Shown here: in pieces, positions 9,658-52,641 of the stretch | Numbering within the stretch: position 1 is the first letter of the stretch | Layout of the letters: the number at the start of each line of letters is the position of its first letter | Assembly (NCBI GenBank): GCA_043818215.1 | Contig: JBDRGC010000127.1 | Coordinates: 12,832-76,831, forward strand | DNA from: Chloroflexota bacterium | Lineage (GTDB): Bacteria > Chloroflexota > Anaerolineae > Anaerolineales > UBA11858 | DNA length: 64,000 nt | Direction: 5' to 3' | Translations under genes and position numbers: made by a program | The notes under the pieces: model-generated | Seen by the model: only the letters and a program-made list of their open reading frames with translations | What the model was told of the DNA's origin: nothing | Database searches by the model: none

Positions 9658-10575
9658 ATGCGCATTCTTATCACCGGCGCCAGCGGCCTGCTGGGTATCA
9701 ATCTGGCCCTGGAAGCCGCCGGCCAGCACACCGTTTTCGGAGTGGTTAATAGCCGCGGACTGAAAACCGAGGCCTTTACCGTCCTGCAAGCGGACTTGCT
9801 GGAACCTGGCGCGGTGGAACGTGTTCTTGATGAGAGCCAGCCCGATTGGGTGATCCACTGCGCCGCCCTGGCCAACCTGGAAGCCTGCGAAAAGCATCCG
9901 GCGTTGGCCCGGGAATTGAATACCGAAGTCCCCCGAAATCTGGCAGCCCAATGTCGGAATGGCGGAGCGCGCTTGTTGCACGTCTCCACGGACGCGGTAT
10001 TCGATGGTAAGCGCGGCGGCTACACAGAAGATGATTCCCCCAATCCGCTGGGCGTCTACTCCCGAACCAAACTCGAAGCTGAACACGCCGTAGCCGAGGC
10101 TTACCCCGAGGCGATCATCGCCCGCGTCAATCTCTTCGGCTGGAGTCTGACCGGTAAACGCAGTCTGGCCGAGTTTTTCTTTTACAATTTGCAAGCGGGT
10201 AAAAATTTGATGGGCTTCACCGATGTTTATTTCTCCCCCCTGTTGGTGAACGATATTGCTCACATTTTCATCAAAATGCTGAAAAAGGGCTTAGGCGGCT
10301 TGTATCACGTTGTCAGCAGTGAGAGCTTGAGTAAATATGAATTTGGTGTCGCTATTGCCCGGAAGTTCGGACTCGATTCCGAGTTGATTGCCCCCAGGTC
10401 AGTTTCGGATGCCGGCCTCGAGGCTGTCCGCTCCCCCAACTTGACTCTCAAGGTTGATAAACTTATCCACGCTTTGGGCGAATCTCCCCCCGGAATATCC
10501 CCAGCTTTAGAACGCTTTTACACCCTTTATCAACAGGGTTATCCACAGTTTCTTGGTAGGTTGGTAGGTTGGTAG
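9658..10575 (+). CDS. SDR-type sugar reductase, RmlD (dTDP-4-dehydrorhamnose reductase)-like
   Basis: MRILITGASGLLG Rossmann start and YSRTKLEAE (YxxxK). Its size and layout match the RmlD substrate-binding family. The last codons run into the TTGGTAGG array. Confidence 0.65.
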   Translation: MRILITGASGLLGINLALEAAGQHTVFGVVNSRGLKTEAFTVLQADLLEPGAVERVLDESQPDWVIHCAALANLEACEKHPALARELNTEVPRNLAAQCRNGGARLLHVSTDAVFDGKRGGYTEDDSPNPLGVYSRTKLEAEHAVAEAYPEAIIARVNLFGWSLTGKRSLAEFFFYNLQAGKNLMGFTDVYFSPLLVNDIAHIFIKMLKKGLGGLYHVVSSESLSKYEFGVAIARKFGLDSELIAPRSVSDAGLEAVRSPNLTLKVDKLIHALGESPPGISPALERFYTLYQQGYPQFLGRLVGW

Positions 10576-10668: not shown

Positions 10669-10685
10669 GCTCTCGTCAGTTTTGT

Positions 10686-10976
10686 TTAGCTTTCAGCGAT
10701 CTGATAAGTTGGCTTTCGCTGTAATTCCTGTAACTTCTCCTGTACCCATAGATTCAACAGGGTTTCGGCTGAAATACCCCGCTTCCTTGCTAAATCTGTG
10801 ATTTTTGATGACAGGGTAGATTCCACGGCAAAGTAAGTTTTACCGGATTGAATATCGATCTCGAATTCGACTTCGGGCATACCATCCAGGTAATCCCCCA
10901 TGTCTGTCTCATCAAAAAATGCTGCCATTTCATCAAGCGATTGGAATTTTGGAAGAGTCTTCCTATTTTCTGGCAT
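10686..10976 (-). CDS. brnA: BrnA-like antitoxin (copy 1)
   Basis: 96 aa, immediately downstream of the BrnT-like gene with a 14-nt overlap. The C-terminal ribbon-helix-helix-like segment is GISAETLLNLWVQEKL. Confidence 0.6.
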   Translation of the reverse strand: MPENRKTLPKFQSLDEMAAFFDETDMGDYLDGMPEVEFEIDIQSGKTYFAVESTLSSKITDLARKRGISAETLLNLWVQEKLQELQRKPTYQIAES

Positions 10977-11247
10977 AGCTTTTTCTCTCTTTGTTCGCCA
11001 TATTTCTGGCGCTCAAGATTAATGCCTGGCGGTTTATTTTATAGATGAACAAAACCGCCAGATACCTTCCTGCGTCCGTTTTCCCCAGCCCAATATATAC
11101 GTCTTCACCCGGACGTTCTCCTTTTTCCATAAAGCGGATTTTTGGTCTGTTTGTGAAGATCTCTTCTACCTCATAAATTTCAACCTGGTGCTTCACGGTC
11201 AGTTTGTTAACAACATCATGCAACCAAAAAAGCCCGGCAATCTTCAT
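10963..11247 (-). CDS. brnT: BrnT-like toxin (DUF497 ribonuclease, copy 1)
   Basis: The W..D..N..KL..KH.V...EVEE pattern, with RYL.V.F, is typical of DUF497. Internal ATG (CAT at 11245-11247). Confidence 0.7.
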   Translation of the reverse strand: MKIAGLFWLHDVVNKLTVKHQVEIYEVEEIFTNRPKIRFMEKGERPGEDVYIGLGKTDAGRYLAVLFIYKINRQALILSARNMANKERKSYARK

Positions 11248-11249
11248 AT

Positions 11250-11540
11250 TTATTCTTCTGCAATCTGATAGACGGGTTTCGGATGCGTTTCTTGCAGTTT
11301 CTCCTGCACCCATAGATTCAACAGGGTTTCGGCTGAAATACCCTGTTCTTTTGCGACCGCGCAAAGCTTTTTGTCAAGGATGGCATCCACAGCAAAGTAG
11401 GTTTTACTGGATTGAATATCGATCTCGAATTCGACAGGATGCGATTGATCCCAAAACTCACCTGCGTCGTGAGAATCCCAAAACTCGCCGATTTCTTCGT
11501 ATGAACTTGCTTTCGAAATTGAACTCTTATTTTTTGCCAT
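11250..11540 (-). CDS. brnA: BrnA-like antitoxin (copy 2)
   Basis: Paralog of 10686..10976, sharing EFEIDIQS.KTYFAV and GISAETLLNLWVQEKLQE. Confidence 0.6.
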   Translation of the reverse strand: MAKNKSSISKASSYEEIGEFWDSHDAGEFWDQSHPVEFEIDIQSSKTYFAVDAILDKKLCAVAKEQGISAETLLNLWVQEKLQETHPKPVYQIAEE

Positions 11541-11604
11541 ATCTTCTCTGTTCTGACCTTGTCATATTTCTCGCTGATACGACTAATGCAAGTTTATCTT
11601 TATT

Positions 11605-11811
11605 CTAGACGAAAAAAATATTCAGATAACGGCCAGCATCCGTTTGCCCAAGCGCTGAGTATACGTTTTCGCCTGGGCGATGGCCTTTTTCCATGAAGCG
11701 GATTTTTGGCCTGTTGGCGAAGACCTCTTCTACCTCATAAATTTCAACCTGGTGCTTCACGGTCAGTTTGTTAACAACATCACGCAACCAAAAAATCCCG
11801 GCAATCTTCAT
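11605..11811 (-). pseudogene. brnT: BrnT-like toxin copy 2, C-terminally truncated
   Basis: Paralog of copy 1. It ends at RYLNIFFV, lacking about 25 C-terminal residues present in copy 1. Confidence 0.5.
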
Positions 11812-11835
11812 ATCCCAATTATACCCCACTTGATT

Positions 11836-14193: not shown

Positions 14194-15035
14194 TCCCATC
14201 TCTGATCGTTCTATCCCATTATCAGGCTGAGTCTCTGATTCGTGCTAAGGGAAACACTGCGGCTGAAGTCTCCCCAGATTTAGGCTTGACCACGGTAACG
14301 GTCGCTCTGCAAAATGAAAAGATATGCTTCCCCAATGGCGAGTATCTTTCCTGGGGAGCTGTTGATGAAATCGCGGCTAACGAGAACAATTGCTTTGTGG
14401 TGGAAGGCGGGGATGTCACGGTTGTGCAAGCATTTTCCGAAACTTTCGAGCGGGTATACACTTTGTACCCCACAGAATCTGCTCCCACGATGCTGGTTTC
14501 AGGCTTGCCTATGCACCGCATCAAAGACACTGACCCCTGGCGCGATACGCAAAGCAAAATCAGGGCGATGGGGCGCGTGAGCGGGCAGGTGCTAGATACG
14601 GCAACCGGACTGGGCTATACTGCTATTATGGCCGCAAAAACCGCCGGCCAAGTGACAAGTATCGAGCTGGACCCGGCGGCGCAGGATATTGCCCGGCATA
14701 ATCCCTGGTCGCAGCCGCTGTTCGATAACCCCAAGATCACGCAGATCATCGGCGATACTTATGACGAAATCGAGGAATTCGACAGTAGCATGTTCTCTTG
14801 TATCATCCACGACCCACCGATGTTCAGGCTAGCGGGAGACTTGTATTCGTTAGCCTTTTACCGTCAGGCTTTTCGGGTGTTGAAACCGGGCGGGTGCATG
14901 TTTCATTATATCGGCAACCCGCACAGCAAGTCGGGCGGACGCGTCACCCGAGGGGTGATCCGGCGATTGCAAGAGGCCGGCTTTTTACGCATCACGCCCA
15001 GGCCGCAGGCATTTGGGGTGGTGGCGTATAAATGA
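14190..15035 (+). CDS. class I SAM-dependent methyltransferase (COG2521-like)
   Basis: Motif [13 protein letters not shown] and a later IIHDPPMF motif. It overlaps the upstream gene by 4 nt. Confidence 0.6.
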
Positions 15036-15224
15036 GTCCGCGAGTCAGCGAGTCAGCGAGTCGGCGAGTTGGCGAGTTGGCGAGTCAGCGAGTCGGCGAG
15101 TCAGCGAGTCAACGAGTCGGCGAGTCAGCGAGTTGGCGAGTTGGCGAGTTGGCGAGTCGGCGAAGTAGAAGATTGTCGAATCGCTGATTCGTTGATTCGT
15201 TGATTCGCTGACTCGCTGACTCAC
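15036..15224. repeat. octamer array (GCGAGTCA/GCGAGTTG/GCGAGTCG, ~16 units) with short inverted arm (GATTCGYT/GACTCGCT)
   Basis: Read directly. The array is stop-free, which generates the spurious ORF 15045..15239. Confidence 0.9.
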
Positions 15225-15241
15225 CGCACCAGGAGACACTT

Positions 15242-16012
15242 ATGCTTACATTCGACAACCTCACAACTGAATTCCGCGCCATTGGCGTACAAACGGGCGA
15301 TACATTACTCGTCCACTCGTCATACAAATCCTTCGGCGGCGTGGAGGGCGGCCCGCAGACGGTGATCGACGCTTTGCTGCACGTTCTTGGCGACGCAGGC
15401 ACCCTCATTATGCCAACTTTCAATTTCGATTTTTGCAAGGGTAAGCCCTGGGATGTGCGCTCCACGCCCTCACACATGGGAGCCATCACCGATATGGTGC
15501 GCGAACATCCTGACAGCCGCCGCGTTTTTCACCCGATTTATTCTTTCGCAATTCTTGGCAAGCACGCAGAATTTCTAACCAAAGAGCGCTACAAGAGCAG
15601 CTATGAGCGCAACTCGCTGTTTGGCAAGTTGCGTGACTTGGACGGCAAGATAATGGTAGTCGGCCTGAGTTATAACGACAGTATGACCTTTTTTCATCAC
15701 ATCGAGGAGTTAGAGGGGGTGGATTACCGCTATATGAAAGTGTTCACCGGCATGGTCACGGACGAGAACGGCAATACCTACAAAGATACTTTCACTATGC
15801 TGGTGCGTGACATCGAGAAGGGCGTGCAGACCATGGTCGATCCCATGGGCGCTTTGATGGAAGATGAGGGAGTCATCACGGTTAGCAAAATTGGTGAGGC
15901 CAAAGTCAGTTTGATGAAGGCCAATGAGGTCTACGAGTTCACGGCTCGAGAGATGAAGCGCGACCCGATGTTGTTGTATCAGATTGAAGGAAACCAGGGA
16001 CTAGGGAACTAG
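15242..16012 (+). CDS. AAC(3)-family N-acetyltransferase (aminosugar acetyltransferase in this context)
   Basis: LVHSSYKSFGG...GTLIMPTFNFDFC is the pattern of the aminoglycoside 3-N-acetyltransferase fold. The 3' codons (GNQGLGN) are array-encoded. Confidence 0.75.
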   Translation: MLTFDNLTTEFRAIGVQTGDTLLVHSSYKSFGGVEGGPQTVIDALLHVLGDAGTLIMPTFNFDFCKGKPWDVRSTPSHMGAITDMVREHPDSRRVFHPIYSFAILGKHAEFLTKERYKSSYERNSLFGKLRDLDGKIMVVGLSYNDSMTFFHHIEELEGVDYRYMKVFTGMVTDENGNTYKDTFTMLVRDIEKGVQTMVDPMGALMEDEGVITVSKIGEAKVSLMKANEVYEFTAREMKRDPMLLYQIEGNQGLGN

Positions 16013-16087
16013 GGACTAGGAATCGGGAACTAGGAAGCTACTACATTCCCGACCCCTAATCCCTAATCCCTGATCCCTAGTCCCTGC
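15990..16087. repeat. inverted heptamer arrays (CAGGGAC/TAGGGAC then CCCTAAT/CCCTAGT)
   Basis: Read directly. It spans the stop of the acetyltransferase gene. Confidence 0.85.
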
Positions 16088-16092
16088 CTCCC

Positions 16093-17433
16093 ATGCTAAA
16101 AGAAATTCTCACCCAACTCTATCCCCTCCACCGCACGCTGGCTTGCGACGGTACTGACGAAGCCTTGCGCATTGTCGGTGCGCAGATGCCCGCGGCCGCA
16201 GGATATGCTATCGAAACCTACACCCCCGGCGCGCCCGTTTGGACGTGGAAGGTGCCGGAGCGATACATAGTTCACGAGGCTTATCTTGAAACGGAGAACG
16301 GCCAGCGCATCGTAGATTTTGCCGACAACCCTCTGCATATCGTTTCGTATTCCCTGCCCATAGACAAACTTCTTACCTGGGATGAACTCGAATCCCACCT
16401 GTATTTCAGCGAGAAACTGCCCCACGCCATCCCCTGGATTTTCAAATATTATCAGCGCGATTGGGGATTCTGCCTGCCCAAAGACACCTTCGACAAGTTG
16501 CCGCGGGATACCCGTTACCGGGCTGTCATCCGCAGCGAGTTTGTCACCGATCCCGATCATGGATTCCGCATCTCAACGGGAGTCCTAACCCCTAACCTCC
16601 TAACCCCTAACCCCCAAACTCCTAACTCGTATAGTACTAACAACCCCGGCGAATTCTTCATCTCCTCCCACATCTGCCACCCCATGCAGGCCAACGATGA
16701 TGCTGCCGGAGTGGTGACGGCCATCGAAGTGGCCCGCCGCCTGGCAGAGAATCCGCTTCCCCCTGGGTCGATGTCGGTGCGCTTCTGGTTCGGCCCGGAG
16801 ACCATCGGCACCATCGCTTACCTGGCTCACCACGAAGACCTGATTCCCCAACTCAAGGGCGGCATCTTCGTGGAGATGACTGGCAACCGCAGCCCCATTG
16901 CCTGGCATCACAGCCGCCAACACGACCACCTGCTCGACCGCGTCACAGACTACGTTCTACGCAACACGGATCACGTCGAGCGCGATTTCGCCGCCCACCC
17001 CGCCAATGACGAACGCGTCATCAACGGCCCCGGCGTCAACGTGCCCTGCATCTCGATCAACCGCTGGCCCTACGATGAGTACCACACCAGCGATGACAAC
17101 CTTGACATCATCCACGAAGATATGCTCCAGGAAGCCGCCGACGTGATCGAAGAAATCGTGCGAATTTATGCCAGCAACTACATACCCAGGCGTACATTCC
17201 GCGGACCGGTGTTTCTCTCCGGTCACGGGCTGTGGGTCGATTGGCGCGATAATTGGGAACTCAACCGCGCCATCGAAAAAATTATGATGCGCTTCGAGGG
17301 ACAGCACAGCATTTTCGACATCGCCGAAGAGGTGGGCCTGGATTACTGGGTGGTGCGCGAATACGTCGAAAAATTCCGGGCTAAGGGTTTTGTGAAAGCG
17401 CTGCCTATTCCCGGCGAGTCTCCGGGTTCATAG
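16093..17433 (+). CDS. aminopeptidase-like domain protein of polysaccharide loci (DUF4910/COG4310-like) with C-terminal winged-helix
   Basis: 446 aa with the M28-like core HICHPMQANDDAAGV. It contains an in-frame heptamer array at 16584-16628. Confidence 0.6.
   Translation: MLKEILTQLYPLHRTLACDGTDEALRIVGAQMPAAAGYAIETYTPGAPVWTWKVPERYIVHEAYLETENGQRIVDFADNPLHIVSYSLPIDKLLTWDELESHLYFSEKLPHAIPWIFKYYQRDWGFCLPKDTFDKLPRDTRYRAVIRSEFVTDPDHGFRISTGVLTPNLLTPNPQTPNSYSTNNPGEFFISSHICHPMQANDDAAGVVTAIEVARRLAENPLPPGSMSVRFWFGPETIGTIAYLAHHEDLIPQLKGGIFVEMTGNRSPIAWHHSRQHDHLLDRVTDYVLRNTDHVERDFAAHPANDERVINGPGVNVPCISINRWPYDEYHTSDDNLDIIHEDMLQEAADVIEEIVRIYASNYIPRRTFRGPVFLSGHGLWVDWRDNWELNRAIEKIMMRFEGQHSIFDIAEEVGLDYWVVREYVEKFRAKGFVKALPIPGESPGS
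16584..16628. repeat. in-CDS heptamer array (CCTAACC)
   Basis: It encodes LTPNLLTPNPQTPN inside the DUF4910-like protein. Confidence 0.8.
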
Positions 17434-17447
17434 GGTATACTTGAAGC

Positions 17448-17819
17448 ATGAGCGCGACTTCGACACTTAAACCTATCGAAATGGATTTAGATACCTGGAA
17501 GACCAGTTTAGAATTGGAACTGGCGCGCTTTGTGGAGCTGGTCATCAATCGTTTCGATCCCCAGAGGATAATTTTATTTGGCTCATTAGCTCAGGATAAT
17601 CCAAAGGTTTGGTCAGATATTGATGTGATAGTCATTCGAGAAACGGATGCTCGTTTTATAGACCGCGGCCTGGAAATTCGGAGTGCATTTCATCCGCGAG
17701 TGGGCATGGATATTTTAGTTTATACTCCCGAAGAGTTCGAACACTTATGTGTTGAGCGGATATTCTTCCGACAAGAAATTCTTGAAAAAGGGAAGGTACT
17801 ATATGAGCAGCGCTACTAA
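17448..17819 (+). CDS. MNT-type nucleotidyltransferase antitoxin (copy A)
   Basis: The GS-x9-12-D-x-D motif (LFGSLAQDNPKVWSDIDV) is present. It is paired with a HEPN gene. Confidence 0.75.
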   Translation: MSATSTLKPIEMDLDTWKTSLELELARFVELVINRFDPQRIILFGSLAQDNPKVWSDIDVIVIRETDARFIDRGLEIRSAFHPRVGMDILVYTPEEFEHLCVERIFFRQEILEKGKVLYEQRY

Positions 17820-18201
17820 TTGGTTGCAATTTGCTCGTGAGGATCTCCGAGTAGCAGAATGGGCACTTGACGAGACAATTAATAATCAAGCTTGTTTTCA
17901 TTCGCAACAATGTGTGGAGAAATCTCTCAAAGCCTGGTTGGTGAGTCAGGGGAAAGCTCCGCCTCGCGTTCATCAGTTGGCGACACTGCTTTCATTGATC
18001 CCTGGTGAACTTGTAGATGATCTCATAGATGGTATTGAGCTTTTGGACCAATTTTATATCCCTACGCGTTATCCTGATGCGCTTGTAAGCTCGTTGCCTG
18101 ATGGTCCGCCAAGCGATCACCAAGCGAGGCATGCCGTAGTGACTGCTCGCAAAGTTCTCCAACGCGTCGAACAACATATTTCCACCCAACCATCCCGTTG
18201 A
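17803..18201 (+). CDS. HEPN-domain toxin (copy A)
   Basis: The FAREDLRVAE...FHSQQCVEKSLKA and IPTRYPD motifs are typical of HEPN. ATG at 17803. Confidence 0.75.
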   Translation: MSSATNWLQFAREDLRVAEWALDETINNQACFHSQQCVEKSLKAWLVSQGKAPPRVHQLATLLSLIPGELVDDLIDGIELLDQFYIPTRYPDALVSSLPDGPPSDHQARHAVVTARKVLQRVEQHISTQPSR

Positions 18202-18308
18202 TTCATCTCCCCTCACCCCTCACCCCTCTTCCCTCTCCAAATATCATCGCCATCGTCCAGGCCCGAATAGACTCTTCTCGCCTGCCGGGCAAAGTGCTGC
18301 TCGACATC
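18198..18308 (+). pseudogene. 5' fragment (~37 codons) of the SpsF-like cytidylyltransferase gene
   Basis: Near-identical to 20476-20586 (MIHLPSPL.PLPSPNIIAI.QAR.DSSRLPGKVLLDI). Similarity stops abruptly at 18308. Confidence 0.7.
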
Positions 18309-18654
18309 AGGGCGAGATACCCTGGCACCGCCCGCCATACCATCCAGGTACAGGACATCGTCCCGATACCTATGCAGGTACTGCGCACTTGCGCCGCACG
18401 CAGTGTAGGTGTGGAAACCTGTCCTGAGTGTATCGAAAGGTCTCGGCTATAGACCCTAACTTTTGAAGAGGATACAAAATTTTATTGTATTCCTTTACCC
18501 CTTCGGGGCACAGGTATGTGTTACTTCGTGCGCAGTGCCTGCATAGGTATACTTTGTGGTTGGCCCCTTTTTGGTTCCGGCCTGTCCCTGTGTATTTCGG
18601 GGGTATGTCCGGGTTAGAGTAGACTTGAAATAGATGTTTTGATATGCCGCTATT

Positions 18655-18981
18655 GTGCAGGAGGCGTTTATGTTAGTTGACACGCGATACGAACACGTAA
18701 TCATGGATGAAGCCAATGTGCCTATAATAACAGGGACAAATACTAAGGTAGTTGAACTTGTTTTGGATAATATTGCCTACGGTTGGAGTCCTGAAGAACT
18801 TCATTTCCAACATCCTGAGTTAACGTTAGGGCAGATATATTCGGCGCTATCTTACTACTGGGACCACAAAGAAGAGCTTGATCAAGACATCGAGCGTCGT
18901 CTTCAACGCGTCAACCATATTCGGGAAGCAGCGCAGCAACTACCCCTGGAAACCCGGTTGAAGACAGCGATGGCAGCCTGA
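18655..18981 (+). CDS. DUF433-domain protein (antitoxin-like)
   Basis: PIITGTNTKVVELV...GWSPEELHFQHPELTLGQIYSALSYY is the pattern of DUF433. The start could be 18670. Confidence 0.65.
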   Translation: MQEAFMLVDTRYEHVIMDEANVPIITGTNTKVVELVLDNIAYGWSPEELHFQHPELTLGQIYSALSYYWDHKEELDQDIERRLQRVNHIREAAQQLPLETRLKTAMAA

Positions 18982-19328
18982 TGGCGATCAAGTTTTACAT
19001 GGACCATCATGTGCCGCGCGCGATCACGAACGGCCTCCGGCTGCGTGATGTAAATGTGATAACTGCTTACGAAGATGGAACCAGCAGATTTGATGACCCA
19101 GACCTGTTGGATCGAGCGGGCGCATTAGGACGCGTGCTATTCACCCGCGATGATGATCTCCTCGTGGAGGCAGCCCGACGACAGCGAAGTGGCATTTCGT
19201 TTCAAGGTGTGATCTATGCTCATCAACTCCATGTCACCATAGGTGTTTGCATTCGTGATTTGGAAACCATTGCCAAGATTGGGGAATCTGACGATTTGAT
19301 GAGTGGAGTGATATTTTTGCCCCTTTAA
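18981..19328 (+). CDS. DUF5615-family PIN-like protein (toxin-like partner of DUF433)
   Basis: The KFYMDHHVPRAITNGLR...VLFTRDDDL pattern is present, and the start overlaps the DUF433 stop (ATGA-type overlap). Confidence 0.65.
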   Translation: MAIKFYMDHHVPRAITNGLRLRDVNVITAYEDGTSRFDDPDLLDRAGALGRVLFTRDDDLLVEAARRQRSGISFQGVIYAHQLHVTIGVCIRDLETIAKIGESDDLMSGVIFLPL

Positions 19329-19342
19329 AGTCGAATAACCTT

Positions 19343-19711
19343 TGGCCCTACGATGAGTACCACACCAGCGATGATAACCTTGACATAATCCACGAAGATA
19401 TGCTCCAGGGAGCCGCCGACGTGATCGAAGAAATCGTGCGAATTTATGCCAGCAACTACATCCCCAGGCGCACATTCCGCGGGCCGGTGTTTCTCTCCGG
19501 TCACGGGCTGTGGGTCGATTGGCGCGATAATTGGGAACTCAACCGCGCCATCGAAAAAATTATGATGCGCTTCGAGGGCCAGCACAGCATTTTCGACATC
19601 GCCGCAGACGTGGGTCTGGATTACTGGGTGGTGCGTGAATACGTCGAAAAATTTCGGGATAAGGCTCTTGTGAAAGCGCTGCCTATTCCCGGCGAGTCTC
19701 CGGGTTCATAG
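19343..19711 (+). pseudogene. 3' fragment (~122 codons) of the DUF4910-like gene
   Basis: Collinear with 17065-17433. By manual alignment about 6 of ~122 residues differ. It has no 5' part. Confidence 0.75.
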
Positions 19712-19725
19712 GGTATACTTGAACC

Positions 19726-20088
19726 ATGAGTACTTTACAGACCCTTGAACCAATTGAGATGGATTTGAATACATGGAAGGCTCGCCTGGAGTCCGAATTG
19801 GCGCGTTTTGTGGACTTAATTATCGAACATTTCTCGCCGAAGAAGATCATCTTATTTGGCTCATTCGCGGAAGGGAAACCGCGGATCTGGTCTGATATTG
19901 ATTTGGTAGTGATCAAAGAAACAGATGATCGCTTTCTGGATCGTTCGAAAGATTTACTTCCTTTACTGATGCCGCGTGTTGGCTTAGACCTCATTGTTTA
20001 CACGCCAGCAGAATTTGACCAATTATGCCAGGAACGTAAATTCTTCCAAGATGAAATCTTGGAAAAAGGGAAAGTGTTGTATGGGTAG
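19726..20088 (+). CDS. MNT-type nucleotidyltransferase antitoxin (copy B, diverged)
   Basis: LFGSFAEGKPRIWSDIDL motif. Clearly more diverged from copy A than the flanking segments are. Confidence 0.75.
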   Translation: MSTLQTLEPIEMDLNTWKARLESELARFVDLIIEHFSPKKIILFGSFAEGKPRIWSDIDLVVIKETDDRFLDRSKDLLPLLMPRVGLDLIVYTPAEFDQLCQERKFFQDEILEKGKVLYG

Positions 20089-20479
20089 CCCCACTGATTG
20101 GCTTTATTTTGCTCGTGAAGATCTTCGTGTGGCAGAATTGACGCTATCGAATGAGATTTACAACCAGGTATGTTTCCACTCTCAACAATGTTGTGAGAAG
20201 GCTCTCAAAGCCTGGCTTGCTCATCAAGGTATTGAATCGCCGAGAAAACATCAATTGAGTGTGCTATTGGCCCTTTCGACGATTGATATTTTTGCAGAGT
20301 TAGGTGGGGATATCGTTCGTCTTGATCGTTTTTACATTCCCACTCGCTATCCTGACGTGCTGGCAGGTTCACTTCCTGAGGGACTTCCAAATAAAGCAAA
20401 TGCCGAGGAAGCTATTGATACTGCTCGCAAAGTTCTCCACCGCGTCGAACAACATATTTCCACCCAACCCTCCCGTTGA
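20081..20479 (+). CDS. HEPN-domain toxin (copy B, diverged)
   Basis: FAREDLRVAE...FHSQQCCEKALKA and IPTRYPD motifs. The last ~19 residues are nearly identical to copy A. Confidence 0.75.
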   Translation: MGSPTDWLYFAREDLRVAELTLSNEIYNQVCFHSQQCCEKALKAWLAHQGIESPRKHQLSVLLALSTIDIFAELGGDIVRLDRFYIPTRYPDVLAGSLPEGLPNKANAEEAIDTARKVLHRVEQHISTQPSR

Positions 20480-21405
20480 TTCATCTCCCCTCACCTCTCT
20501 CCCCTCTTCCCTCTCCAAATATCATTGCCATCATTCAGGCTCGCATGGACTCATCACGCTTGCCGGGAAAAGTGCTGCTCGATATCGGCGGTCGTCCGAT
20601 GCTCCAGTGGGTCGTCGAGCGCACCCGCCGCGCCAAAACCGTGGACGAAGTCATCGTCGCCACCACCACCGACCCATCCGACGATGCCGTAGCCCAATTT
20701 TGCGAGGCCAAAGGTTACCCCGTCACCCGCGGCAGCATCCACGATGTGCTGGATCGCTACTACCAGACCGCCCGGCAATTCAAAGCCGACGTCATCGTGC
20801 GCATCACTGCCGATTGTCCGCTGATTGACCCCGCGCTGGTGGACGGGACGGTGTTCTCGTTATTTGAGATTGGAGATTGGAGATTGAAAGCCGAATCTCC
20901 AATCTCAAATCTCAAATCCCCGATTTTTGACTTCGTCGCCAACCGCCTCCCGCCTCCCTGGGGACGCACCTACCCCATCGGCCTCGACACCGAAGTTTTT
21001 ACATTCGATGCTCTGGAACGTGCCTGGAAGCGAGCTATCGCCAGACACCACCGCGAACATGTCACCCCCTATTTTTACGAAGACACTCCTGTCGATCATT
21101 TGAAATTCAGTGTGCAGGGATCGGAATTTTCCAGCGCCATGACACTTGATGGACTCCACATCGCCTTGCTCCACCACGACCCCGACTACGGCCGCCTGCG
21201 CTGGACGGTGGACACCCCCGCGGATTTGGAACTGGTGCGCGCTATTGTGGCCCATTTCGATAGCCGCGACGACTTCACCTGGCAGGATGTGCTGGCTATC
21301 TTCGAGCGCGAGCCGGAACTGGCGCAAATCAACGCCAGCGTGCGGCACAAGACACACTTGGATGTGGACGATAGGTCAGTAAATCAGGAAGCAGTAAATC
21401 AGTAA
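20476..21405 (+). CDS. cytidylyltransferase-domain protein (SpsF/PseF-like CMP-sugar synthetase family)
   Basis: IIQARMDSSRLPGKVLLDIGGRPML is the N-terminus typical of the SpsF/COG1861 family. The start codon is uncertain (TTG at 20476). It contains an in-frame array at 20866-20919, and its tail (NQEAVNQ) is array-encoded. Confidence 0.7.
   Translation: MIHLPSPLSPLPSPNIIAIIQARMDSSRLPGKVLLDIGGRPMLQWVVERTRRAKTVDEVIVATTTDPSDDAVAQFCEAKGYPVTRGSIHDVLDRYYQTARQFKADVIVRITADCPLIDPALVDGTVFSLFEIGDWRLKAESPISNLKSPIFDFVANRLPPPWGRTYPIGLDTEVFTFDALERAWKRAIARHHREHVTPYFYEDTPVDHLKFSVQGSEFSSAMTLDGLHIALLHHDPDYGRLRWTVDTPADLELVRAIVAHFDSRDDFTWQDVLAIFEREPELAQINASVRHKTHLDVDDRSVNQEAVNQ
20866..20919. repeat. in-CDS inverted heptamer array (GAGATTG x3 / AATCTCC-AATCTCA)
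   Basis: It encodes EIGDWRLKAESPISNLKS inside the cytidylyltransferase. Confidence 0.8.
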
Positions 21406-21588
21406 ATCAGGAAACCAGGAAACCAGGAATCAGTAGATCAGGATGCCAGGGAAGACTGATTTACTGATCTACTGATCTACTGATCTACTGATCTACTGAT
21501 TTACTGATCTACTGATTTACTGATCTACTGATCTACTGATTTACTGATTTACTGATCTACTGATCTACTGATCTACTGATCTACTAAC
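21376..21588. repeat. octamer arrays with inverted arms (CAGTAAAT/CAGGAAAC then CTACTGAT/TTACTGAT x~18)
   Basis: Read directly. It spans the stop of the upstream CDS and ends 3 nt before the next ATG. Confidence 0.9.
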
Positions 21589-21591
21589 CTC

Positions 21592-22551
21592 ATGCCCTCC
21601 CTCACCATCTTCACCGCCCCCAAACCATTCACCGACCCGCATATCAACATCATCCAGCGCAATGCCATCCAATCGTTGCTGCATTTGAATGATAGTGTTG
21701 CTCCAGGCGAGTCCGTGACTCGCCGGCCTGGGCACGCCCCCGATCACGGATCGGCTGGGAGCAACCCGGTGCAAGTTATTCTGGTTGGCGATGAAGACGG
21801 TCTGGCTGAGACCGCGGCGGAATTTGCCGTGTTGCATCTGCCAGATGTGGCGCGCAACGAATGGGGCACGCCGTTGGTCAGCTCGATTTTTGCCCTGGCG
21901 CGTGAGGCCAGTGAGGGACCGCTGCTGGCTTATGTCAACGCCGATATTTTGCTGAGGCCCGATTTTGTGGAGACAGCCCGCACAGTAGCCTCTCAGGTCG
22001 AGAAATTTCTGGTGGTGGGGCAGCGCTGGGATCTGGCTGTCACGCAGGACTTGGCCTTCACCCCAAACTGGGATCAGCGGCTCCGGGTGGAGGTTCAGTC
22101 CCGAGGGGAATTGCACGCCCCTGCGGGCAGCGATTATTTCATCTTCCCCCGGTCAATTTTCACAGATATACCCGATTTCGCCATCGGCCGCGCTGGCTGG
22201 GATAATTGGATGATCTATTGCGCTCTGCAAAACCGCTGGCCGGTGGTGGATGCCACCGCAGCGTTGATGATCGTGCATCAAAACCACGATTACAGTCATC
22301 TGCCCGGCGGCGTGGCTCACTACGATCTCGAAGAGACGCAGATCAATGCTTCCCTGGGGGGCGGGATGCGCAATATGTACATGACTCTGGACGCCAGCCA
22401 TGAATTTGTGGGGGGACGGGTGCGGCGGGCGCGCCCCAGCCGGGCACGTATCCTGCGGAGGTTAGAGCGGTGGATGTACCCAGTTTTGCGCACAGGCATA
22501 CGCTGGACTTTCACCCGTTACCTGCGGCGTTGGCGTCGCAAAGTGATGTGA
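21592..22551 (+). CDS. hypothetical protein, possibly GT-A-like glycosyltransferase
   Basis: A 319-aa ORF with good coding character. Only weak resemblance (SDYFIFPRS...GRAGWDNW) to glycosyltransferase-like proteins. Confidence 0.3.
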   Translation: MPSLTIFTAPKPFTDPHINIIQRNAIQSLLHLNDSVAPGESVTRRPGHAPDHGSAGSNPVQVILVGDEDGLAETAAEFAVLHLPDVARNEWGTPLVSSIFALAREASEGPLLAYVNADILLRPDFVETARTVASQVEKFLVVGQRWDLAVTQDLAFTPNWDQRLRVEVQSRGELHAPAGSDYFIFPRSIFTDIPDFAIGRAGWDNWMIYCALQNRWPVVDATAALMIVHQNHDYSHLPGGVAHYDLEETQINASLGGGMRNMYMTLDASHEFVGGRVRRARPSRARILRRLERWMYPVLRTGIRWTFTRYLRRWRRKVM

Positions 22552-28051: not shown

Positions 28052-28172
28052 GGATTAGGAACCAGGAAACCAGGAAACCAGGAAATCAGGAAACCAGGAA
28101 ACCAGGAAATACCGCCCCCTGGTCTACTGATTCCTGATTTACTGATCTACTGATCTACTGTTCTACTGATAC
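28049..28172. repeat. octamer arrays with inverted arms (CAGGAAAC then CTACTGAT)
   Basis: Read directly, between the sulfotransferase and oxidoreductase genes. Confidence 0.9.
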
Positions 28173-37931: not shown

Positions 37932-38322
37932 GAATCAGTAGGTCAGTAGATCAGTAGATCAGTAAATCAGGGATCAGTAGATCAGTAAATTAGTAAATCA
38001 GTAGATCAGTAAATCAGGAATCAGTGGATCAGGGAGCAGTAGATCAGGAATATAATCAGGGTTTCCTGATTTCCTGATTTCCTGGTTTCCGGATTTCCTG
38101 ATTTACTGATTTCCTGATTTACTGATTTACTGATTTCCTGATTTCCTGATTTCCTGGTTTCCTGATTTCCTGATTTCCTGGTTTCCTGATTTCCTGGTTT
38201 CCTGGTTTCCTGGTTTCCTGATTTCCTGGTTTCCTGGTTTCCTGATTTCCTGGTTTCCTGGTTTCCTGGTTTCCTGATTTCCTGGTTTCCTGGTTTCCTG
38301 GTTTCCTAGTTTCCTAGTTTCT
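37931..38322. repeat. largest array in the window (~390 bp): CAGTAGAT/CAGTAAAT arm then TTTCCTGA/TTTCCTGG arm
   Basis: About 48 octamer units can be read directly, with an orientation switch near 38055. It generates the spurious ORF 38127..38411. Confidence 0.9.
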
Positions 38323-39076: not shown

Positions 39077-39262
39077 GGGGACTGGTAAATTGGGGAGTGG
39101 TAAATTGGTAAATTGGGGATTGGTAAATTGGTAAACTGGGGACTGGTGATTGGTTCCCAGCTTACCAACCTACCAATCTACCAATCTACCAACCTACCAA
39201 CCTACCAATCTACCAATCTACCAATCTACCAATCTACCAACCTACCACTCCCCAATTCCCAA
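39077..39262. repeat. octamer arrays with inverted arms (TGGTAAAT/TGGGGACT then CCAATCTA/CCAACCTA)
   Basis: Read directly, ending 5 nt before the kinase ATG. Confidence 0.9.
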
Positions 39263-40813: not shown

Positions 40814-41809
40814 ATGAAAAGACCACTCAGCATCATAATTCCATGCTTCAATGAACAAGCCACTATTCGTTTGCTGCTGGACGCCATCTACGCGCAAACG
40901 TATCCCCGCGAACAGATAGAAGTGATTATTGCCGACGGCATTTCCACGGATGATACCCGCGCAGAGATTCGCGCTTTCCAGCAAACCCATCCAGACCTGA
41001 ACATCGAAGTGGTAGATAACCTGAAGCGCAATATTCCTGCGGGGCTTAACCGAGCCATCGAGGCTGCTGGCGGAGAGTTCATCGTGCGGCTGGATGCTCA
41101 CTCTGTGCCCCACAATGATTACGTTTCCCGGTGCTTGGCTGCTTTAGATGCCGGCCTGGGCGACAACGTCGGAGGGGTGTGGGAAATCCAGCCCTCGGAG
41201 CCGGGATGGGTGGCACGTTCCATTGCGGCTGCGGCAGCCCACCCACTTGGCGTGGGCGATGCCAGTTACCGGGTCGGCGGCCAGCCACAAGCCGTAGATA
41301 CGGTTCCCTTTGGGGCCTTCCGCCGCGCATTGACTGATCGCATAGGCCTTTTTGATGAGACTTTGCTTTCCAATGAAGATTATGAGTTCAACGTTCGGGT
41401 GCGCCAATCGGGGGGCACTGTTTGGATGGACCCTGCAATCCGCTCGCAATACTTTGCGCGTCCTAACCTGCGGGCGCTTGCCAAACAGTATTGGCGCTAC
41501 GGGTATTGGAAATTGTGTATGCTGAGACGTTTCCCGGAGACGTTTCGTTGGCGGCAGCTTTCGGGGGCCTTCGTGCTTACCTGGTTGGTTTTAGGTATAC
41601 TTGCAATTTGGTTCCCTGTGGCTCAGTGGCTCCTGTCGGCGGAGGCTATCATTTACAGTCTAGCCCTGGCAATGGCCGGAGCGCAGACTGCTGTGAAAAA
41701 CCGTGATCTGGCGATGTTGGTTGGCGTGCCTCTGGCAATTGCAACCATGCACTTCGCCTGGGGAACAGCGTTTTTGTGGAGTTTGTTGAAATCGGTGATT
41801 GGAGATTAG
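40814..41809 (+). CDS. glycosyltransferase family 2 with C-terminal TM helices (ExoA-like layout)
   Basis: LSIIIPCFNE, ADGISTDDT and RLDAHS motifs. ATG at 40814. Confidence 0.75.
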   Translation: MKRPLSIIIPCFNEQATIRLLLDAIYAQTYPREQIEVIIADGISTDDTRAEIRAFQQTHPDLNIEVVDNLKRNIPAGLNRAIEAAGGEFIVRLDAHSVPHNDYVSRCLAALDAGLGDNVGGVWEIQPSEPGWVARSIAAAAAHPLGVGDASYRVGGQPQAVDTVPFGAFRRALTDRIGLFDETLLSNEDYEFNVRVRQSGGTVWMDPAIRSQYFARPNLRALAKQYWRYGYWKLCMLRRFPETFRWRQLSGAFVLTWLVLGILAIWFPVAQWLLSAEAIIYSLALAMAGAQTAVKNRDLAMLVGVPLAIATMHFAWGTAFLWSLLKSVIGD

Positions 41810-41909
41810 AGATTGGAGATTGGATACTGGAGATTGGAGATTAGAGACTGGAGACCGTAGACGGAAATTGAGACTGGAAATCTCTAATCCCTAATCTCCA
41901 ATCTCCAAT
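41795..41909. repeat. inverted heptamer arrays (GAGATTG/GAGACTG then AATCTCY)
   Basis: Read directly. It overlaps the GT2 stop. Confidence 0.85.
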
Positions 41910-52282: not shown

Positions 52283-52641
52283 GAATGAGAATTAAATAAC
52301 TTACCCATTCAAGCAATCACGGTAGCGCCGGTTGAGTAGCGCAGGCACATGCTTTTCGTGCCGTAGCGTATACCTATGCAGGTATACCGTCCCGGTATCT
52401 AGGGACTGCGCACCTGCACTGCATGTGGCGCAAGTGTCGAAACCCAGCGGATTACAGGAAACTAGCCCATTTTCAAGCCCCGTTTGGTTTCTGGACGATC
52501 CATCGATTGTGTTGCTGTTCTACGATGGGGAAAACTATCTCCGTTGGGAGCCATCGACGGAGTGGGAACTGCTCAACCCGAGGCTGTATCCATTTGCGGT
52601 CTAAACCCCGGTGCATGCAAGGATGAAGTGATATTCATTTC

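Follow-up and report, generated by a model that had tools for sequence, protein, structure and literature searches.

A natural insertion-duplication stacking three predicted toxin-antitoxin modules in a surface-glycan locus of a Chloroflexota bacterium

The locus described here lies in a 64,000-nt stretch of DNA from an uncultured Anaerolineales (Chloroflexota) bacterium (contig JBDRGC010000127.1), referred to below as the window, and all coordinates are positions in that window. Three predicted toxin-antitoxin (TA) pairs, MNT_A/HEPN_A, DUF433/DUF5615 and MNT_B/HEPN_B, were found stacked there between a DUF4910 gene and an spsF-like gene, the two outer pairs being carried by the two copies of a direct repeat. 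It was concluded that the duplication combines two diverged haplotypes in a mosaic, and that the locus is a natural insertion-duplication stacking known kinds of TA modules, a rearrangement of a known kind with a well-preserved scar. From this scar of leftover gene pieces it follows that recombination added diverged versions of the locus instead of swapping them. The stack probably arose by homologous and illegitimate recombination with DNA of related strains at a hot-spot spacer, which is the explanation favoured overall.

Chromosomal TA modules come and go in syntenic operons without a recombinase, and their movement is rarely visible. The present locus keeps the scars of such movement: the ends of the flanking genes were the homology arms, and truncated copies of these genes mark where the incoming DNA was joined. 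In different species the one spacer is occupied by diverged modules from two families, and the locus provides a clean natural example for asking whether addiction biases recombination toward stacking. It also carries a practical warning, since short-read assemblies of metagenome-assembled genomes (MAGs) break or may be mis-phased at such loci.

Structure of the duplication and divergence of its parts

The order in the window was an intact DUF4910/M28-like gene, MNT_A, HEPN_A, a 5' fragment of spsF (spsF'), 1034 nt with DUF433/DUF5615, a 3' fragment of DUF4910 ('DUF4910), MNT_B, HEPN_B and an intact spsF-like gene. All six predicted TA genes were intact and the partners overlapped within each pair. 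The central segment X was divided into the parts X1 and X2, and its junctions with copy A and copy B of the repeat were named J1 and J2. The features were as follows:

16093..17433, plus strand: intact DUF4910/DUF2172/M28-like gene, 446 aa (Pfam); its final 369 nt are the left arm of copy A
17065..18308, plus strand: copy A of the 1244-nt direct repeat, A-type haplotype (base-by-base comparison)
17448..17819, plus strand: MNT_A, minimal nucleotidyltransferase, predicted antitoxin, 123 aa (Pfam PF18765/PF01909; NCBIfam MntA below cutoff; exact protein on independent contigs)
17803..18201, plus strand: HEPN_A of the PF05168 type, predicted toxin, 132 aa (Pfam); 17-nt overlap with the MNT_A stop, final 19 codons in the right arm
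18198..18308, plus strand: spsF', A-type cytidylyltransferase 5' fragment, 37 codons from a TTG start (Pfam CTP_transf_3 positions 1-21); ends at J1
18309..18614, no strand: X1, non-coding long-hairpin segment (inverted repeat; fold z-score)
18615..19331, plus strand: X2, DUF433/DUF5615 predicted TA module (Pfam; nucleotide identity to locus L001)
18670..18981, plus strand: DUF433, PF04255 (Pfam)
18981..19328, plus strand: DUF5615 PIN-like gene, PF18480 with a weak PF01927 match (Pfam); 1-nt overlap with DUF433
19332..19342, no strand: J2 filler CGAATAACCTT between the module end and the DUF4910 fragment
19343..20586, plus strand: copy B of the direct repeat, B-type haplotype (base-by-base comparison)
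19343..19711, plus strand: 'DUF4910, 3' fragment of the final 122 codons plus stop, without a start codon (Pfam positions 212-246 of 247)
19726..20088, plus strand: MNT_B, 120 aa (Pfam Polbeta/NTP_transf_2)
20081..20479, plus strand: HEPN_B, PF05168, 132 aa (Pfam)
20476..21405, plus strand: intact spsF-like cytidylyltransferase gene, B type (Pfam CTP_transf_3, NCBIfam); its first 37 codons close copy B

The two copies of the repeat were aligned without gaps at a constant offset of 2278 nt, with 950 matches over 1244 nt (76.4%). A ragged 12-nt extension to 17053/19331 contained 8/12 matches, and beyond the edges of the repeat the identity fell immediately to the random level of about 25%. The left arm (17065-17446) was 95.8% identical between the copies (366/382), the MNT/HEPN centre (17447-18141) 62.2% (432/695) and the right arm (18142-18308) 91.0% (152/167). 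The first identity break fell in the stretch from the DUF4910 stop (17433) to the MNT start (17448), and a second break was located 57 nt ahead of the HEPN stop; identical runs shared by the copies reached at most 95 nt. Protein identity was 62% for MNT as well as for HEPN; six amino-acid substitutions were counted in the DUF4910 fragment (past the junction codons) and three in the 37 spsF codons. Copy A adjoined the intact DUF4910 gene and closed with spsF', and copy B opened with 'DUF4910 and adjoined the intact spsF. An earlier, sequence-only reading of the window had described two collinear copies of identical 1244-nt extent, near-identical outer parts around a far more diverged centre, and the attachment of each copy to one intact gene with truncation at its other end. 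The ungapped comparison, the identity profile and the gene map agreed with this description. The amino-acid estimates of that reading (about 6 differences in DUF4910, about two-thirds identity in the centre) matched the counted values, and its domain calls were all confirmed by Pfam.

Further, the rates of synonymous (dS) and non-synonymous (dN) substitution were obtained from Nei-Gojobori estimates. In the centre the synonymous sites were saturated (proportion of synonymous differences, pS, 0.78), with dN of 0.27 for MNT and 0.40 for HEPN. The DUF4910 arm gave dS 0.13-0.15 and dN 0.02-0.03, the spsF' arm dS 0.43 and dN 0.04. Compared from 17065, 'DUF4910 differed from the intact gene by 9 synonymous and 6 non-synonymous changes (dN/dS 0.17), and spsF' compared with its intact copy gave a dN/dS of 0.09; the full range over the truncated fragments was 0.09-0.18. 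For both fragments pooled, 21 synonymous and 11 non-synonymous changes were counted (binomial P = 3e-7 against neutrality), and each arm alone gave P < 0.002. A dN/dS near 1 is expected for a fragment decaying in place. The predominance of synonymous differences therefore indicates that both fragments acquired their differences while belonging to working genes of another genome. Single-nucleotide polymorphisms (SNPs) approached the outer repeat edges to within 32 nt at the left (17097) and 4 nt at the right (18305), making a later conversion of an in-situ duplicate implausible.

Related loci, central segment and joints

The spacer was surveyed in 141 related loci in which both DUF4910 and spsF could be placed. 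In 99 of these 141 loci the two genes overlapped or were separated by at most 107 nt. A gap of 250-470 nt with a small open reading frame (ORF) of ~110 aa, membrane-protein-like by eye, was found in about 32 loci, and a gap of 1.4-1.9 kb with large membrane proteins in five. A single MNT/HEPN pair filled the spacer in L008, L026, L034, L047 and L126 (5 of about 140 loci). The DUF4910-spsF spacer is a variable recombination hot spot, of which the two module families of the window are both regular occupants. In L008 the HEPN partner was cut to 54 aa (9690-9860), a module decaying in the same spacer. In another lineage DUF4910 occurred as tandem paralogues upstream of spsF (L057 905-3572, and L132), 72% and 64% identical to the query.

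In pairwise comparison, allele B was closer to the single-copy L008 and L047 (MNT_B 71-72%, HEPN_B 66-75%) than to allele A (62%). Allele A was an outlier to all, and L026, L034 and L126 formed a third lineage. A single-copy haplotype of allele A was found in L169, from another sequencing run, where DUF4910, MNT_A' and HEPN_A' were followed by an intact spsF. It was 94.4% identical to the window in nucleotide sequence over 16605-18307, collinear with copy A up to 18307 and continuous with spsF from there on, and its HEPN_A homologue (P0121) shared 95% of amino acids. The search for single-copy alleles suggested by the sequence-only reading was thus successful, L169 answering for allele A and L008 and L047 being single-copy relatives of allele B.

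Along the B path of the window, L169 was 90-100% identical in the left arm and in 20423-20660, 53-75% in the TA centre and 45-85% past spsF codon ~62. The 3' part of spsF past this codon appeared as a second hypervariable segment. According to the SNP table, the arms were three-way mosaics of copy A, copy B and L169: the latter sided with copy B against copy A at nine sites in 18162-18269, and with copy A against copy B in 17057-17109 and 17327-17389. Lying between hypervariable segments, the arms form conserved linker islands that recombine freely among haplotypes. This mosaic upheld the proposal that the conserved ends of the biosynthetic genes act as homology arms.

Parts of the stack were recovered in independent assemblies. 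The MAG contig L161 from NCBI (JAHJKI010000273.1, 2616 nt) matched 16809-19336 with two mismatches and carried DUF4910, MNT_A, HEPN_A, spsF' and X; a second older MAG contained the same type of contig. Run SRR2540949 yielded two Logan unitigs that were 100% identical to the window, one over 17416-18340 (allele A and 31 nt past J1) and one over 19694-20598 (allele B). In a different run, L170 was 100% identical over 20170-21429. HEPN_B was present on the independent unitigs L162 and L170, and the B-type spsF-like protein had a 100% identical match in Logan and NCBI. Allele B was not found in the two older MAG assemblies. Exact-protein look-ups gave no match for the full DUF4910, for spsF read from the TTG start or for a 103-aa ORF in the copy-B DUF4910 fragment; hence J2 and the left arm of copy B were without independent contig support. 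Strain-level SNPs among MAG assemblies of the same population were seen inside DUF4910 (16881-16944, L167 and L168). The window equalled L168 up to 16880 and L161 from 16832 onward, these two differing from each other. Two haplotypes seem to be combined in the window, by recombination or as a consensus, with the switch between 16832 and 16880.

In the central segment, X2 consisted of a ~55-nt leader, DUF433, DUF5615 and 3 nt past the stop. It was 91.4% identical in nucleotide sequence to positions 4144-4861 of L001, the closest relative, in which the homology started directly after the DUF4910 stop codon. The dS between the two modules was 0.22-0.24, compared with 1.16 for the adjacent DUF4910 (78% nucleotide identity). 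A module dS so far below that of its flank indicates that X2 was transferred between lineages, as a unit, yet it lies downstream of DUF4910 in both.

X1 contained a hairpin with 23-nt arms (18366-18388 and 18528-18550; fold z-score -4.5). No frame of X1 had coding potential, and no homologue of it turned up in 170 loci. An Rfam search over 16000-21700 returned nothing real, the only hits being sub-threshold matches of miRNA models on low-complexity repeats, and a promoter and terminator scan remained at chance level. A relative of X1 was detected in the intergenic region 52355-52468 (nhmmer E = 4e-5, a weak match) that shared the rare motif ATACCTATGCAGGTA...CTGCGCAC, and the X1-like sequence may be a small dispersed palindromic element of the genome. 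The spacer had been taken by the sequence-only reading for unrelated foreign cargo. This was not borne out, as DUF433/DUF5615 occupies the same spacer in L001 and the X1 motif recurs in the window. An integron gene-cassette array was considered as well and rejected: no recombinase was found among the neighbouring genes, the module borders were gene fragments and not attC-like repeats, and the X1 hairpin was absent from the other module borders.

At J1 the homology to spsF stopped at 18307/18308, and spsF codon 37 was joined to X1. There, copy A read GACAT followed by CAGGGCGAG and L169 read GACAT followed by TCGCGGTCG. Besides the window, both older MAG assemblies and one Logan unitig contained J1. 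At J2 the module homology stopped at 19331 and, after the 11-nt filler, the homology to DUF4910 started at 19343, so that DUF4910 codon 325 was joined 3-14 nt past the DUF5615 stop. In every homologue from a pattern scan (53 instances) CIS[IL]NR preceded WPYDEYH, and copy B read SNNL. Microhomology, scored without the original context of X, amounted to 0-1 nt at J1 and was patchy at J2 (4+4 of 12 nt). Both J1 and J2 are illegitimate joints.

A third joint was found in L161. Its nt 1-88, encoding VATTLDPSDDPVFEFCKRKNYRV, corresponded to the A-type spsF of L169 (VVATTLDPSDDPIFEFCKRKDYRV, codons ~60-88), and this fragment was fused out of frame to DUF4910 codon 239 (window position ~16809) with the same polarity as the other joints of spsF' to 'DUF4910. 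Since this joint lies at other positions, such head-to-tail joints arose more than once in the population. The L161 joint implies either that the events recurred or that some strains carry an additional unit.

Origin of the stack

It was proposed that the spacer can be empty or occupied by one TA module in the lineage, and that DNA of a related strain, carrying a different module at the same locus, would recombine with the resident locus. One end would be joined by homology in the linker islands, i.e. the 3' end of DUF4910 or the HEPN tail with the 5' end of spsF, and the other end illegitimately, as at J1 and J2. The incoming module would then land beside the resident one, with truncated copies of the flanking genes remaining as scars. 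In this scheme DUF433/DUF5615 is presumed to be the resident module. The B unit would have come in from the right, with its anchor in spsF and its joint just past the DUF5615 stop, and the A unit from the left, with its anchor in DUF4910 and spsF codon 37 joined to X1; the polarity and the order of the two additions are those that we infer. The L161 joint would represent a further event anchored on the left. The incoming DNA was probably linear rather than a circle and may have entered by homology-facilitated illegitimate recombination (HFIR). Stacked recombinants would persist because loss of the resident TA module is counter-selected, and the central module would be lost if the arms were resolved by homologous recombination.

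A donor from a diverged genome was indicated by the arms (dS 0.13-0.43, dN/dS 0.09-0.18), by the saturated centre and by the single-copy L169. Several observations weigh against the scheme. The linkage of A, X and B in one molecule rests on one assembly. An 84.8-kb NCBI contig encodes MNT_A, HEPN_A, DUF433, DUF5615, MNT_B, HEPN_B and spsF under consecutive accessions, but the window was probably taken from this contig, which is therefore no independent support. The older assemblies (L161) ended at 19336, and the Logan unitig L163 (allele A) ended at 18340, 31 nt past 18309, which suggests other contexts of X in the same samples. The DUF433 module of L001 abutted the DUF4910 stop with no X1 in between, which makes X1 doubtful as a resident sequence. 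The microhomology at J1 was at most 1 nt, and HFIR joints usually have a few nucleotides. A route of DNA uptake in the lineage (e.g. competence) and the counter-selection by addiction are assumptions of the scheme. Nevertheless, J1 and J2 are real rearrangement joints and the conclusion on the hot spot stands, whether the genome holds a further unit or the A - X - B phasing joins two strains.

The sequence-only reading had proposed a Campbell-type integration. In its strict form, a non-replicating 2278-nt circle ('DUF4910 - MNT/HEPN - spsF' - X1 - DUF433/DUF5615) would have entered by one crossover within the 1244-nt homology. The locus has exactly the topology of a single-crossover product: direct repeats of 1244 nt flank 1034 nt, and each copy is complete outward and truncated toward the insert. 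Both arms are also foreign-like, the SNP mosaic of the arms could include the crossover point, and the spsF_A''-'DUF4910 joint of L161 resembles the closure point of a circularised A-type fragment. However, no circular donor was in evidence. No replication, integration, transposition or mobilisation gene was found by Pfam in the 2278-nt unit, and plasmid, phage and viral searches returned no match to it. Moreover, a circle only defers the question of J1 and J2, which would then have arisen in some earlier event. In L001 the same spacer is normally occupied by X2, and no route to small double-stranded circles in nature was indicated here. The circular junction 18308/19343, for which a search had been suggested, is not diagnostic, as an excised circle would hold only junctions already present in the chromosome. 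The topological part of the proposal was thus retained, and the circular origin was judged unlikely. One-sided homologous recombination with an illegitimate joint fits the data at least as well as a circular donor.

A cross-strain assembly chimera was also weighed, in which J1 and J2 would be real but belong to different strains and be joined through the shared 1-kb X. One strain would carry DUF4910 - A - spsF' - X followed by other sequence, and the other would carry X - 'DUF4910 - B - spsF preceded by other sequence. The heterogeneity of the population (at 16881-16944 the window is unlike L167 and L168), the contig ends of L161 and L163, the lack of allele B in the older MAG assemblies, and the length of X (1022 nt), which exceeds typical short-read insert sizes, are all compatible with it. 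On the other hand, J2 links X to the middle of DUF4910 without shared sequence, which demands real spanning reads, and the final 5 nt of L161 match the window past the module end. A strain with the truncated spsF' would still need an intact spsF, which the stack supplies. Alleles A and B occurred in the same run, SRR2540949, and the arms would not confuse an assembler, given that no identical run shared by the copies exceeds 95 nt. A chimera was consequently held to be quite improbable.

An old in-situ tandem duplication, followed by fast TA divergence and homogenisation of the arms by gene conversion, would agree with the collinear copies of equal extent without indels and with the diverged tandem BrnT/BrnA duplication 6 kb upstream, but it was rejected as highly improbable on the synonymous saturation, the allele relationships and dN/dS: the centre is saturated at synonymous as well as non-synonymous sites, a mark of age and not of positive selection, allele B is nearer to alleles of other species than to allele A, the fragment dN/dS is not about 1, relatives carry single copies, and a pure tandem duplication cannot put X between the copies. 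The uniform divergence over 1244 bp that the sequence-only reading had named as the sign of such an event was excluded; a simple tandem would be a head-to-tail unit with a single novel joint and one level of divergence throughout, and here X is unrepeated and the profile is uneven.

A broader idea was put forward tentatively and with some doubt, namely that TA addiction might act as a ratchet at recombination hot spots. Two-sided replacement would kill the cell and only insertion-duplications keeping the resident module would survive, so that TA arrays would accumulate. If this were true, survivors would come from one homologous and one illegitimate end, or from a single crossover, and the arrays would be split by core-gene fragments. 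The central DUF433/PIN-like module would lock the duplication, as resolution between the 95%-identical arms deletes it. Such a ratchet would provide a recombinase-free mechanism for the spread and pile-up of chromosomal TA modules, and similar scars would be predicted at other TA-occupied spacers, e.g. at the BrnT/BrnA pair at 10.7-11.8 kb.

Module families, known systems and genomic setting

The HEPN_A and HEPN_B proteins were of the PF05168/COG2250 type, with 1ufb and 1o3u (TT1696 and TM0613) as the closest structures, and the MNT proteins carried the LFGS...SDID motif. Judged by sequence, the MNT/HEPN pairs belong to the predicted MNT-HEPN class (COG1708/COG2250): a small MNT gene and a PF05168 HEPN gene were adjacent and co-oriented, and the pairs were patchily distributed in syntenic loci. 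The resemblance to this class included the order of MNT followed by an overlapping HEPN, the protein lengths of about 120-130 aa, the G-S...D-x-D motif and the location in syntenic operons; the insertion of MNT-HEPN modules in otherwise syntenic operons was noted by Makarova et al. 2009 (PMC2701414). A DUF86-type HepT toxin was ruled out, the HEPN proteins being PF05168. In the type VII HepT/MntA system, AMPylation was shown with a DUF86 HepT (PMC7641770, PMC11586414), whereas the HEPN proteins here were TT1696/TM0613-like. The MNT proteins scored 28.3 and 37.0 bits against the NCBIfam MntA equivalog NF047752 (cutoff 60) and were thus related to it, not members. With PADLOC, the MNT proteins obtained only weak candidate-family matches.

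The DUF433 gene was located directly upstream of the small Mut7-C-like PIN gene, and the two were regarded as a predicted TA pair. DUF433 antitoxins with Mut7-C-like PIN toxins (COG4634/PIN_10, VapB45-type) were described by Matelska et al. 2017 (PMC5499597). The present pair resembled them in the upstream DUF433, the small PIN-like gene and the 1-nt overlap, its PIN-like partner being assigned from Pfam DUF5615 alone.

The recombination itself was compared with known systems. HFIR (de Vries & Wackernagel 2002, Prudhomme et al. 2002 and Meier & Wackernagel 2003, cited in PMC5361080; also PMC3240628) was established by experiment with naturally transformable bacteria and with E. coli conjugation. 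It was further proposed for effector-immunity arrays of type VI secretion systems (T6SS) and for orphan strings of Rhs and contact-dependent inhibition (CDI) systems (PMC5361080, PMC3240628). The locus resembled HFIR products in having one homologous anchor and one illegitimate joint, DNA added beside the resident, leftover fragments of the anchor gene and no dedicated recombinase. It differed in that HFIR would here be deduced from scars alone and in the J1 microhomology of 1 nt or less. With Campbell-type insertion-duplications by suicide plasmids it shared direct repeats that flank an insert, each intact on one side and truncated on the other, but a vector backbone, replicon or circular form was missing and the "insert" was a TA module native to the spacer in a relative.

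The closest known analogues are the T6SS effector-immunity displacement arrays and the Rhs/CDI orphan strings. As in the Vibrio cholerae T6SS arrays (PMC5361080) and the Rhs/CDI strings, successive horizontal additions would have taken place at one locus via a conserved upstream anchor. Older modules are kept in the displacement arrays, fragments of conserved genes precede the displaced modules, and the force proposed behind this is that the cell cannot do without its old protective gene. In contrast, orphan immunity genes are retained there without the old toxin, whereas complete two-gene intracellular TA modules were kept here, and the scars here derived from two unrelated housekeeping genes on both sides.

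The DUF4910 protein had its best relatives, at 72-80% identity, in Anaerolineales/Chloroflexota MAGs. A query with this protein detected no members of the same species in GTDB representative genomes or JGI metagenomes (top matches 80% and 79%). The order of an AAC(3)-like acetyltransferase gene, DUF4910, the spsF-like gene and a 319-aa gene was kept in about 140 related loci. The neighbouring genes encoded NeuB, glycosyltransferases, methyltransferases and the AAC(3)-like acetyltransferase, by which the locus was identified as a nonulosonic-acid-type surface-glycan cluster. A second stacked TA locus was seen in the same cluster on the minus strand (10685-11829), between an epimerase-like gene and neuB. 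Here BrnT/BrnA (CopG-like) was duplicated in tandem (period 564 nt, identity 75-88%), and the second BrnT was seemingly shortened (74 aa).

Many intergenic arrays of 7-8-nt tandem repeats, e.g. GAGTCGGC, ACTGATCT and GGTTTCCT, were observed in the window, some of them inverted. They were located at 15034-15163, 21455-21585, 28060-28109, 37934-38321, 39163-39247 and other positions, and the short-read contigs of the population break at such arrays (e.g. ~21450-21565). Heptamers also occurred in coding sequence. Inside DUF4910, those of the CCTAACC type (16584-16620) encode the low-complexity insert LTPNLLTPNPQTPNS. The intact spsF-like gene contained GATTGGA-type heptamers that form a near-perfect inverted repeat of 24 nt at 20862-20917, and a heptamer array related to it was present at 41797-41854.

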